A DNA stretch of 64,000 nt from a virus. Lineage: Duplodnaviria > Caudoviricetes. Made by a program: the position numbers and the translations under genes. Below the pieces are notes generated by a model. It ran no database searches, was not told the origin of the DNA, and worked only from the letters and a program-made list of their open reading frames with translations. The first letter of the stretch is position 1. Every line of letters begins with the position of its first letter. The DNA lies in the IMG/VR virus record IMGVR_UViG_3300033463_000012. One strand, 5' to 3'. Positions 19,687-31,094 of the stretch are shown in pieces.

Positions 19687-19759
19687 TGCTCCATATCTCA
19701 GTAGGCAGAGAGTCCGACTGTTAATCGGAATGTCCCAGGTTCGAACCCTGGTGGAGCAG
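19687..19759 (+). tRNA. tRNA-Asn(GTT), no encoded CCA
   Basis: Cloverleaf; TCCGA-CT GTT AA-TCGGA; GGTTCGAACCC. Confidence 0.93.
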
Positions 19760-19765
19760 TGTTTT

Positions 19766-19856
19766 AGGAGTCGCTCCACCTCGCGGTCTTATAAGCCGTT
19801 GCGCATAATAAATCAGGTGGCGGTGCGCATGTTGGGTTCAATTCCCTCGACTCCTA
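19766..19856 (+). tRNA. Non-canonical tRNA-Ile(TAT)-like RNA, no D-arm, long variable arm
   Basis: Acceptor AGGAGTC/GACTCCT+A; GCGGT-CT TAT AA-GCCGT; TGCGCAT/GTGCGCA arm; GGTTCAATTCC. Confidence 0.7.
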
Positions 19857-19858
19857 TC

Positions 19859-19930
19859 GCACGTGTCGTATAGTGGCTATTACCCCGCCCCTCCAAGGCG
19901 GAGACACCGGTTCAATTCCGGTCACGTGCT
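19859..19930 (+). tRNA. tRNA-Gly(TCC), no encoded CCA
   Basis: GCACGTG/CACGTGC+T; CCGCC-CC TCC AA-GGCGG; ACCGG TTCAATT CCGGT. Confidence 0.93.
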
Positions 19931-19932
19931 TT

Positions 19933-20495
19933 GAAGCAGCTCCACTGAAACTCGGTAGCAAGTGGAGACCCGTTGGAATCGAGTTGTCGTGAACGGGTGG
20001 GTCGTTTTCCGTGACCCAGAATTAGTTGTTGTAAAGGACACCAAAGTCCTATGATTGACGTTCCAAAGCGGATATCTCATAGGGCAACGGAATAAAGTTT
20101 ATGGGCGACCACCGAAAACGTCGATACCATGCCGGAAACACCACATGTTCAGAGCGTGTTGCAACAGCATGGTCCCTTGGCACTTCGTCAAGTAGCACGA
20201 TAGGTGCGAGCCCTTTGATTTTCGTTTCCGTTGAATCTATCTTTTCGGAAACGACCACCGGAAGGCGTTGGGATAGAACAGCGCTTGACAGATCATATTC
20301 GTGGTCCTCCGGTGGAAACCTTTTCACTTCAGACCATCGCTTCGATTTGATTTGAAGTGAACCCATCGGGAGAGGTCCCAGAATCGAAGCAACTGCTCTA
20401 ATTGTTGAGCAAGAATGATAAACCCTCGTCATAGCTTGATAGTGACCTATTTGGCCAATAGCAACCTTTCAAGTGATTGATGAACCGATGGGAAC
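19933..20495 (+). ncRNA. Large highly structured ncRNA (~560 nt), ROOL-like candidate
   Basis: More than 12 stems and 3 loop-mediated pairings fill the gap between two tRNAs; no credible RBS-led ORF. Confidence 0.75.
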
Positions 20496-20501
20496 ACTTT
20501 T

Positions 20502-20592
20502 GGGAGATTGGCCGAGTTGGTCGATGGCGGCGGTCTCGAAAACCGCAGGTGGACCTCAAGTTCATCCGCAGGTTCGAATCCTGCATCTCCCG
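20502..20592 (+). tRNA. tRNA-Ser(CGA), no encoded CCA
   Basis: GGGAGAT/ATCTCCC+G; GCGGT-CT CGA AA-ACCGC; long variable arm. Confidence 0.93.
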
Positions 20593-20602
20593 TTTTGACT
20601 TT

Positions 20603-20706
20603 CTGGAGCGTGGCCGAGTGGATTATGGCGGCTAGTGGGGTGGCAACTCACGGCTTGACGCTCTCGCCGGGCGCCTCGTGGGTTCGAATCCCACCGTTCC
20701 AGACCA
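20603..20706 (+). tRNA. Atypical tRNA-like RNA (8-bp acceptor stem, extended anticodon arm, GGC at loop centre, long variable arm, encoded CCA)
   Basis: CTGGAGCG/CGTTCCAG+A+CCA; Ser-type D arm; GTGGG TTCGAAT CCCAC T arm. Confidence 0.7.
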
Positions 20707-20790
20707 GGGTGAACGCTAACGATGGCGAGTTAGGAGAGACTGTAAATCCCTTGCCTTTCGGCTCAGGAGGTTCGAATCCTTCTTCACCCA
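20707..20790 (+). tRNA. tRNA-Tyr(GTA), no encoded CCA
   Basis: GGGTGAA/TTCACCC+A; CT GTA AA loop; variable arm GCC TTTC GGC. Confidence 0.88.
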
Positions 20791-20902
20791 CTTCGAAGGG
20801 ACAGATTCCGAGGTTTAGCCATTGTCCCCGGAATTTGAAGGATGTTTCTTCCCCGTTTCCTTCCTTCTCACCTTCGAGCACTTTCACAAAAACGGAGAAC
20901 AC

Positions 20903-29624: not shown

Positions 29625-31094
29625 ATGTTCTACAGGGAACTGTTTGAAGAATTCAAGAAATGGGTGACTTCCTCTCACATGGAGGAAGAGGTCCAGGATG
29701 CCTACGAAACGGGTGACATCAGTGTCTTCGACGAAATCCTCGAACAGTTCGAATTCTTTGTACAACATGAAGTCAAGGCGGATGACATCGTTTCCATGGT
29801 GGACGATTGGTGCGAACTTCAACCACTGACTGAAAGTGCAGAAAGCAGCATTGACTGGAACTCGTTTTCAGACCCGGACATTCAGAAGGGTGTTGATCTG
29901 ATGCGAAAGATAAATGACTGCGGTTACGAGGCATACATAGTCGGTGGCTGTGTTCGTGATATCGTCAATGGAGACAAGGACGTTCATGACATTGACATTG
30001 CCACCAATATGCCAATTTCGGAACTGAAGAGCAAGTTTCACACCGCAGACAATGGCGGGGAGAAACATGGAACAATTCTTGTCGAAAACGACGGAACCAT
30101 GTTCGAGGTGACTCAATTCAGAACCGAAACTGGTTATAGCGACGGACGACATCCTGACAAAGTGGATTGGACAAATTCATTCGAAGCCGACACCAAACGT
30201 CGTGACTTCACCATAAACGCCATGGGCATAGATGCAGATGGAAAGGTGATCGACTACAATGGTGGAATGGACGACCTACGCAACAAAGTGCTTCGTGCAG
30301 TAGGAAATCCCGTTGAACGTTTCACCGAGGACGCCTTGCGTATCATGCGCGCCATGCGTTTTGCCGCTCGATTCGACATGACCATAGCTGAAGAGACAAT
30401 GGAAGGAATAGTCGCTTGCAAGGATCAGCTGAGCAACATTGCAGTGGAACGCATCCAGGCCGAAATGATCAAGACTGCTGAATATGGCTCCAAACAGTTC
30501 GCGATCATTGTTTCCTTGATGAACGACACTGGATGCGGTGAGGTAATCGATCCTTATGGTTTCGTGGATTGGGGCAAGGCGACGGATTTGACCGAAGCAA
30601 GGGCACTGAATCCATTGTTCCCCGAATTGGACAAGGACGTCATAGTCTCCTTGGCCCTGCTGTTCTATGGAAGTGACACAAACAAGGCCATGTCATATTT
30701 CAGATGTTCAGGTGATCAGACCAGGAGCGTTGGATTCATCTATGACAACTTGGAGAATTACAGGCACCTTGAAGATTTGGACCCGATCAATGCCATTAAA
30801 ATTGTGAACAACAAGGACTTTGATCGGCTGCGTGAAGTGAACCATGCGATCGAAGGACATGACAGTGAAAGCGCCAAGGTCATTCCTGTGATCGAAATGC
30901 TGATCGACAAGGCATTGCCGAGATTCAAGGACATTTCCGCGATGATGAAGAAAGCTGGAATAAAATCTGGACAAAACTACGGAATCATCCAGAAGAAAAT
31001 TCAGAACAAAATCTGCAAGATGTATATGGACGGGATTGAACCGACCGATGATCAGATAATGGAAATGCTGATCAAATACAGTGAGCTAAATTAG
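29625..31094 (+). CDS. cca: tRNA nucleotidyltransferase (class II CCA-adding/poly(A) polymerase family) with ~70-aa N-terminal extension
   Basis: AYIVGGCVRD, DIDIAT, EVTQFRTE, RRDFTINAM, RFTEDALRIMRAMRF, ERI. Confidence 0.92.
   Translation: MFYRELFEEFKKWVTSSHMEEEVQDAYETGDISVFDEILEQFEFFVQHEVKADDIVSMVDDWCELQPLTESAESSIDWNSFSDPDIQKGVDLMRKINDCGYEAYIVGGCVRDIVNGDKDVHDIDIATNMPISELKSKFHTADNGGEKHGTILVENDGTMFEVTQFRTETGYSDGRHPDKVDWTNSFEADTKRRDFTINAMGIDADGKVIDYNGGMDDLRNKVLRAVGNPVERFTEDALRIMRAMRFAARFDMTIAEETMEGIVACKDQLSNIAVERIQAEMIKTAEYGSKQFAIIVSLMNDTGCGEVIDPYGFVDWGKATDLTEARALNPLFPELDKDVIVSLALLFYGSDTNKAMSYFRCSGDQTRSVGFIYDNLENYRHLEDLDPINAIKIVNNKDFDRLREVNHAIEGHDSESAKVIPVIEMLIDKALPRFKDISAMMKKAGIKSGQNYGIIQKKIQNKICKMYMDGIEPTDDQIMEMLIKYSELN

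Follow-up and report, generated by a model that had tools for sequence, protein, structure and literature searches.

In a 64,000-nt stretch of phage DNA (Caudoviricetes; hereafter the window), which is part of the 132-kb IMG/VR virus record IMGVR_UViG_3300033463_000012 (estimated to be 66% complete), we identified a 91-nt gene for a tRNA with anticodon UAU (19766-19856, plus strand) whose D-arm appears to be rebuilt as a pseudoknot. A preliminary description of the sequence had proposed a tRNA(UAU) devoid of a D-arm and carrying a pseudoknot to the loop of the variable arm, and this is borne out by homologues, in which the pairing is conserved and covarying. We consider it probable that the gene encodes a working elongator tRNA with a non-cloverleaf core, reading AUA, most likely as isoleucine. 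Its parts are the following:

19766-19773, plus strand: 5' strand of the acceptor stem, AGGAGUCG, 8 nt, pairing with 19848-19855
19774-19775, plus strand: connector CU, 2 nt, from the acceptor stem to the pseudoknot strand (columns 9-10 of the alignments A3 and A5 described below)
19776-19781, plus strand: strand X of the pseudoknot helix, CCACCU, pairing with 19815-19820
19782, plus strand: spacer C, 1 nt, ahead of the anticodon stem (alignment column 17)
19783-19799, plus strand: anticodon arm, 5-bp stem and 7-nt loop CUUAUAA, with the anticodon UAU at 19790-19792
19800-19805, plus strand: 5' strand of the variable-arm stem, UGCGCA, pairing with 19824-19829
19806-19814, plus strand: A-rich linker in the variable loop, UAAUAAAUC, of UAAAC type across the family, with two invariant A
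19815-19820, plus strand: strand Y of the pseudoknot helix, AGGUGG, perfect complement of 19776-19781
19821-19823, plus strand: CGG, part of the YGGU element 3' of strand Y; GG(U) is invariant in 28/28 members
19824-19829, plus strand: 3' strand of the variable-arm stem, UGCGCA, pairing with 19800-19805
19833-19847, plus strand: T arm, UGGG / UUCAAUU / CCCU, with a 4-position stem
19848-19855, plus strand: 3' strand of the acceptor stem, CGACUCCU, 8 nt, pairing with 19766-19773
19856, plus strand: discriminator A73, without encoded CCA; A73 is found in 28/28 members

The interval between the acceptor stem and the anticodon stem is 9 nt (19774-19782), where about 10 nt had first been counted, versus the ~17 nt expected of a D-arm, and it holds no D hairpin. 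The perfect complementarity of CCACCT (19776-19781) to AGGTGG (19815-19820) was confirmed at these positions, as were an anticodon arm with TAT and a T loop (loops CUUAUAA and UUCAAUU), and both show canonical features (5-bp stem, 7-nt loop, U33 and a purine at 37 in the former, UUCRANY in the latter). In the variable arm, a 6-bp hairpin closes a loop of 18 nt. The acceptor stem, initially taken as normal, has 8 bp and not 7, and the acceptor/T branch is therefore of the 8/4 kind (8+4, i.e. 12 layers). A 7/5 reading of this branch is ruled out, since it leaves a constant mismatch between positions 49 and 65 (U-C in most members of the family). We also examined an alternative GGG-loop-CCC hairpin that strand Y could form in some members with the 3' side of the variable stem, and rejected it because that 3' strand covaries with its 5' strand instead.

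On one sequence alone, the CCACCU/AGGUGG match would be only suggestive: a perfect Watson-Crick 6-mer is expected by chance in ~1.6% of cases (~65 window pairs x 4^-6, by hand arithmetic), and the nested minimum-energy fold of the candidate is unremarkable (z = -1.66). We therefore rely on homologues. Relatives anchored on the neighbouring ligase gene share at most 41% identity and do not carry the candidate gene, a search anchored on the terminase gene gave one distant locus, and several of these protein-anchored distant phages carry an ordinary tRNA-Ile(UAU). Blastn against INPHARED returned ordinary tRNA matches only. An exact search with the 17-nt anticodon arm found it in 32 viral contigs; ARAGORN calls a tRNA-Ile(UAU) in 24 of 31 loci that bear the identical arm (L044-L074; L numbers designate loci or contigs throughout), some of these 24 genes also having a long variable arm, and the remaining L044-L074 loci lack a D hairpin. 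Broader patterns led to more than 119 viral loci with long variable regions, and a pattern of the candidate type to five viral and 38 metagenome contigs. With more than 150 loci fetched in all, tRNA(UAU) genes turn out to be common in phages, and the rarity first stressed for them, with bacteria in mind, does not extend to these genomes.

Parsing of these loci gave 28 distinct sequences with the layout of the candidate. In order, this consists of an 8-bp acceptor stem, a 2-nt connector, strand X (6 nt), a 1-nt spacer, the anticodon arm, a short variable stem, an A-rich linker, strand Y (6 nt), an invariant YGGU, the 3' strand of the variable stem, a 4-bp T stem, and A73. The nearest relative, L197, also has a tRNA-Asn gene directly upstream, and versions of its type are present in contigs from sheep and other gut metagenomes. 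In the contigs of the relatives, similarity to the window ends exactly after 19856, the 3' end of the gene. No member was found when the family pattern was searched against prokaryote genomes, the one match being a tRNA(UAU) of a GAU-hairpin type (see below) in a contig of a Rhodobacteraceae metagenome-assembled genome (MAG).

Covariation was assessed in two alignments: A3, in which the 13 most diverse members were aligned with plain MAFFT, and A5, in which all 28 members are realigned to a covariance model and which is biased towards the nested helices of that model. In A3, the five helices including the pseudoknot are 98.6% paired versus 80.3% in column shuffles (0/500 reach the observed value), and pairing falls to 45-53% when partners are slid by one to three columns. 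The pseudoknot helix by itself is 98.7% paired in A3, with both sides changed at five of its six pairs, and 98.8% paired in A5, where one pair is seen as G-C, U-A, C-G, A-U, and U-G; the covariation of CCACCT with AGGTGG that had been put forward as a check is thus present. The variable stem shows compensatory changes at three of four scored pairs. Across the 28 members, the acceptor stem has 99.6% of its cells paired and compensatory changes at six of eight pairs, the eighth pair being G-C in 27/28, and the 4-bp T stem is 98.2% paired, with the T loop UUCAAYU in 28/28. The family contains 15 X:Y haplotypes, in which a strand forms 5.87 of 6 pairs with its own partner versus 3.85 with the partners of other members.

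The comparison with L197 leads to the same result. The two genes differ at 17 positions, 12 of which make up six fully compensatory pairs; the pseudoknot helix accounts for four of them, the variable stem for one (C-G to G-C), and the acceptor stem for the last. No pair is broken. Moreover, a covariance model built from 11 members with both the candidate and L197 left out (R3) finds the candidate at full length (60.6 bits, E = 1.2e-15, model positions 1-86) as its sole match in the 64-kb window, and a hand-written descriptor of the fold, run over 1.96 Mb of DNA, retrieves 30 true instances versus one in the reversed control. Taken together, the covariation, the haplotypes, the compensation relative to L197, and the leave-out detection show that the pseudoknot is real and under selection.

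The gene escapes standard tRNA finders, as had been anticipated. ARAGORN leaves it uncalled in every mode (default, intron, low-threshold, and mitochondrial), and the Rfam tRNA model RF00005 (cut-off 29 bits) has no match at 19766-19856 even at E<=10. Its sole Rfam match is to tRNA-Sec (RF01852), with 23.7 bits (E = 0.059) for a gathering score of 47. Five further family members have no Rfam match at E<=0.01, and the neighbouring tRNAs score 53-75 bits. We considered that a normal tRNA might be interrupted by an intron or insertion, and rejected this possibility, as alignment to cloverleaf tRNA-Ile(UAU) genes shows no excisable segment that would restore a D-arm.

Judging from its sequence, the gene is likely to function as an AUA-reading tRNA. 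The rules of tRNA-Ile identity involve A73 together with the anticodon-loop elements A35, U36, A37, and A38 (PMC9976931); all of these are present in the candidate and invariant in 28/28 members, as is the entire anticodon loop CUUAUAA, and the 24 ARAGORN-called phage tRNA-Ile(UAU) genes share the identical 17-nt anticodon arm with the candidate. CCA is encoded in 22/28 members. At all 42 family loci the gene lies co-oriented inside a tRNA cluster, with companions that typically form a rare-codon set (Arg(UCU), Leu(UAA), Lys(UUU), Thr(UGU), Glu(UUC), Gly(UCC)), and at none of these loci does a cloverleaf tRNA-Ile(UAU) stand beside it. Besides the candidate, the 132-kb record yielded no Ile-type tRNA gene, and ARAGORN calls no other tRNA-Ile in it. 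ATA makes up 22% of the Ile codons in the phage genes (13.3 per 1000 codons); although AT-rich genes had first been invoked, the phage is not AT-rich, with a G+C content of 45.9%.

The strongest argument that the fold works in translation comes from a second anticodon. The same pseudoknotted 8/4 fold occurs in other phage contigs with the anticodon GUA (loop CUGUAAA or CUGUAAC), and its X:Y helix is there 100% paired and covarying. These genes are:

L110:3813-3898, GUA-fold gene
L083:14220-14304, GUA-fold gene
L088:7689-7773 (=L089, L113), GUA-fold gene
L161:5603-5687, GUA-fold gene
L136:169-252, GUA-fold gene
L164:6289-6374, GUA-fold gene
L055:3812-3900, GUA-fold gene

In L083, L088/L089/L113, and L164, the GUA-fold gene is the only one with a Tyr anticodon detected by either ARAGORN or the fold scan, within arrays of 24-39 tRNA genes that include tRNAs for 18-19 other amino acids, and two of these records are covered whole. 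Since a gene of this fold supplies the single member lacking from an otherwise almost full set, the simplest view is that it works as a tRNA.

The candidate belongs to a tRNA operon, flanked upstream by a gene for an ATP-dependent DNA ligase and downstream by a gene for a T4-type large terminase:

19687-19759, plus strand: tRNA-Asn(GUU)
19766-19856, plus strand: candidate tRNA(UAU) gene, 91 nt
19859-19930, plus strand: tRNA-Gly(UCC)
20501-20593, plus strand: tRNA-Ser(CGA)
20707-20791, plus strand: tRNA-Tyr(GUA)

It lies 6 nt from the tRNA-Asn gene upstream and 2 nt from the tRNA-Gly gene downstream. The sole open reading frame (ORF) across it, a 94-aa frame starting with TTG, also runs through the tRNA-Asn gene, and we do not regard it as a gene for that reason. 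A scan for promoters and terminators gave nothing beyond shuffled expectation. DNA sequencing runs trace the window to bovine gut samples.

The operon has further peculiarities. Between tRNA-Ser and tRNA-Tyr, at 20604-20702, lies a second odd tRNA-like gene with canonical acceptor, D, and T arms (33.4 bits with the Rfam tRNA model) and 29 nt in place of the 17-nt anticodon arm, which ARAGORN reports only as a Pro tRNA with an intron or as an Ala tRNA of low score. A 570-nt gap (19931-20500) contains no Pfam-supported ORF; a 127-aa minus-strand frame within it (20049-20432) has no family match. Outside the operon, the region 29625-31094 encodes a 489-aa protein with a PolyA_pol head domain (1e-32) and the associated RNA-binding domain, which by these domains is a nucleotidyltransferase of the CCA-adding enzyme/poly(A) polymerase family. 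It is relevant here because the other tRNA genes of this phage, like the candidate, lack an encoded CCA.

A possible mode of working can be drawn from the parts of the gene. The 6-bp X:Y helix would substitute for the D stem by stacking on the anticodon stem, and the YGGU that follows Y, a candidate counterpart of D-loop G18-G19, may take on their tertiary role by contacting the T loop. The 8/4 branch would retain the 12 stacked layers that are read by RNase P, the CCA enzyme, and EF-Tu. Published (8/4) tRNAs do function with E. coli EF-Tu and ribosomes (PMC5389517). In a tRNA, the 3' strand of the D stem runs on into the 5' strand of the anticodon stem. Since X similarly continues into the anticodon stem, Y plus YGGU resembles a 5' strand followed by a GG loop, and the 6 bp and 4 nt match the size of the D-arm in tRNA-Sec and in the so-called allo-tRNAs, the core may be read as a 6-bp, tetraloop D-arm of the tRNA-Sec/allo-tRNA type whose 5' strand and loop would be relocated 3' of the anticodon arm and tethered there by the variable stem. 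The transcript would be released from its polycistron, between tRNA-Asn and tRNA-Gly, by RNase P and 3' trimming, and would receive its CCA from a host or phage nucleotidyltransferase. The host isoleucyl-tRNA synthetase (IleRS) would then charge it via A35, U36, A37, A38, and A73, supplying AUA decoding to a phage in which ATA represents 22% of Ile codons.

A number of points weigh against a decoding tRNA of this kind. None of the RNA runs in which the stretch was sought contains it. The records are fragments, and the statement that no other Ile or Tyr tRNA is present is limited to the DNA that they cover. The T stem of the candidate consists of GGG/CCC plus a U-U outer pair, and thus has three Watson-Crick pairs, and the core with its pseudoknot is presumed to fold into an L of suitable dimensions. 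The main weakness lies in charging: IleRS of the E. coli type charges a UAU anticodon poorly, and E. coli ribosomes carrying a UAU tRNA without modification misread AUG (PMC3575796). Finally, six acidobacterial allo-tRNA(UAU) species that had been converted to amber suppressors showed no activity in E. coli (PMC5389517).

These points leave some room for a conserved tRNA-shaped RNA that acts outside decoding, which we regard as unlikely. Such an RNA might sequester a host anticodon nuclease or a tRNA-binding defence protein, as a decoy or sponge, or else regulate a tRNA-handling enzyme, with the anticodon loop and the acceptor end kept only as bait. The missing RNA reads would agree with it, most allo-tRNA(UAU) species take no part in translation according to a suggestion by Mukai et al. 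(PMC5389517), and the operon holds other odd RNAs, namely the tRNA-like gene at 20604-20702 (33.4 bits) and the 570-nt non-coding gap. A decoy would nonetheless leave unexplained why the family shows a complementary distribution with cloverleaf tRNA-Ile(UAU), why CCA is encoded in 22/28 members, and why the GUA version fills the one missing slot of near-complete arrays.

An adaptor that carries an amino acid other than isoleucine, so that AUA would be recoded or mistranslated, is improbable. The long variable arm and the non-standard core recall allo-tRNAs, through which Ser or Ala is incorporated at non-cognate codons in E. coli (PMC5389517), and charging could be imagined by the synthetases for leucine (LeuRS) or tyrosine (TyrRS) via the long variable arm and A73, which is the Leu and Tyr discriminator too (PMC9976931), or by the synthetase for serine (SerRS). 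The fold is moreover common to the GUA genes, which are of Tyr type. The variable loop is nevertheless engaged in the pseudoknot and not displayed, and ordinary phage tRNA-Ile(UAU) genes have the same anticodon arm. TyrRS requires G34 and U35, and both are absent from the candidate. Serine is disfavoured by A73, which differs from the Ser discriminator used by Mukai et al. (G73/U73). As for recoding, ATA is an ordinary codon throughout the phage genes at 13.3 per 1000, and a change of its meaning would therefore alter most phage proteins. A decayed pseudogene with a chance CCACCU/AGGUGG match, which could account for the silence of ARAGORN and of the Rfam tRNA model, the unremarkable fold energy (z = -1.66), and the U-U in the T stem, is refuted by covariation, with 28 distinct homologues, compensatory changes in every helix that 0/500 shuffles reach, all six stem differences from L197 compensated, and a leave-out model that finds the gene at E = 1.2e-15, and we assign it a negligible probability.

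We regard the gene as a tRNA variant of non-cloverleaf topology. In the literature searched in full text, no account turned up of a phage or bacterial tRNA in which a pseudoknot re-forms the D-arm. Among published kinds, the (8/4) allo-tRNA(UAU) comes nearest (PMC5389517; PMC7609411). Allo-tRNAs similarly have an 8-bp acceptor stem, a T stem of four positions (with a U-U outer pair in the candidate), and a long variable arm, and UAU is their commonest anticodon (PMC5389517; PMC7609411). The candidate weakly matches the tRNA-Sec model, the one used to find them, and its 6-bp helix with a 4-nt GG element is similar in size to the D-arm of both allo-tRNAs and tRNA-Sec. They differ in that, comparing by description, allo-tRNAs have a D hairpin with a long stem and a tetraloop, whereas the candidate has a pseudoknot that reaches across the anticodon arm; in that they carry G73 or U73, associated with serine identity, versus A in 28/28 members here; and in that they are mostly found in Acidobacteria and soil beside toxin-antitoxin genes, whereas the present family lies in phage tRNA clusters. 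Some of the 'five-stem-junction' sequences of PMC5389517 may belong to the same family.

Cloverleaf tRNA-Ile(UAU) genes, such as those of phages among L044-L074 and the tRNA-Ile2 of Mycoplasma mobile (PMC3575796), share UAU and A73 with the candidate, and the phage ones also the identical 17-nt anticodon arm and the same place in rare-codon tRNA sets, but their branch is 7/5, their D hairpin normal, and their variable loop 5 nt long, and ARAGORN and Rfam detect them, none of which applies to the candidate. In tRNA-Sec (RF01852), as in the candidate, the acceptor stem has 8 bp, a 6-bp helix of D type goes with a 4-nt loop element, and the variable arm is long. It differs by its 8/5 branch, UCA anticodon, D hairpin, and G73, and the UAU candidate obtains 23.7 bits with its model versus the required 47. 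The D-armless tRNA-Ser(AGY) of metazoan mitochondria also lacks a D hairpin and has a short connector (PMC4013460; PMC9427863), but it is truncated, has neither a long variable region nor a replacement helix, and needs adapted partners. With its 91 nt, the candidate is by contrast longer than a normal tRNA and has the helix rebuilt, and the mitochondrial mode of ARAGORN gives no call.

The tRNA-like domain of tmRNA and the tRNA-like structures of plant viruses are, as the candidate appears to be, tRNA-shaped and pseudoknotted with a non-cloverleaf core. Unlike it, these mimics have no decoding anticodon arm or are placed at the ends of messenger RNAs or genomes, and their pseudoknots lie elsewhere. 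Three tmRNA genes were seen in phage contigs, adjoining tRNA clusters (L136:3969-4387, L012:5037-5391, and L019:447-799); that of L136 scores 110 bits with the permuted tmRNA model, and those of L012 and L019 are ARAGORN tmRNAs with tags ending in ALAA.

Two further types of unusual tRNA(UAU) emerged from the phage loci. Many phage tRNA(UAU) genes keep their D-arm and have a variable-arm hairpin whose loop, above covarying stems, is centred on GAU, the ordinary Ile anticodon. This GAU loop is present in 22 of 25 distinct variable regions (L040, L045, L038, L058, L068, L075, L085, L114, L118, L120, L128, L163, and others, as well as L216, the Rhodobacteraceae MAG contig) and is absent from the pseudoknotted family. 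The other type lacks a D hairpin and has a 7/5 branch, a 7-8-nt connector beginning with UAU, and a candidate complement of 3-4 bp in the variable region (CUC:GAG, CCC:GGG, CGGC:GCCG, GCUC:GAGC), followed by UAG...GG. ARAGORN makes no call for any of the genes of this type listed here:

L062:1428-1507, 7/5 short-connector gene
L066:3248-3330, 7/5 short-connector gene (grouped L066/L069/L073)
L073:8271-8353, 7/5 short-connector gene
L209:1429-1504, 7/5 short-connector gene
L100:2359-2435, 7/5 short-connector gene
L177:8052-8128, 7/5 short-connector gene
L055:4075-4158, 7/5 short-connector gene
L064, 7/5 short-connector gene

To our knowledge, the cloverleaf is treated as universal outside mitochondria, and tRNA finders are built on it. 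If this widespread, covarying class of phage RNAs does consist of working tRNAs, RNase P, the CCA enzyme, the synthetase, EF-Tu, and the ribosome would all tolerate a rebuilt core with a different strand topology, and the fold would give a natural scaffold for orthogonal tRNA design. The tRNA repertoires of phages would also be undercounted, with AUA and Tyr decoders left unannotated, and studies of codon adaptation would be biased as a consequence. A wider proposal, which we put forward as speculative and rather doubtful, is that these genes represent a general non-cloverleaf architecture of phage tRNAs (8/4, with the D-arm as a pseudoknot), spanning several isoacceptors (UAU, GUA), functional on the ribosome, and selected to escape host enzymes that read the standard core, be they anticodon nucleases or enzymes whose wobble modification would make reading no longer specific for AUA. 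The family would then offer a concrete case in which to ask whether phage tRNAs are reshaped to evade the tRNA-directed defences of their hosts.
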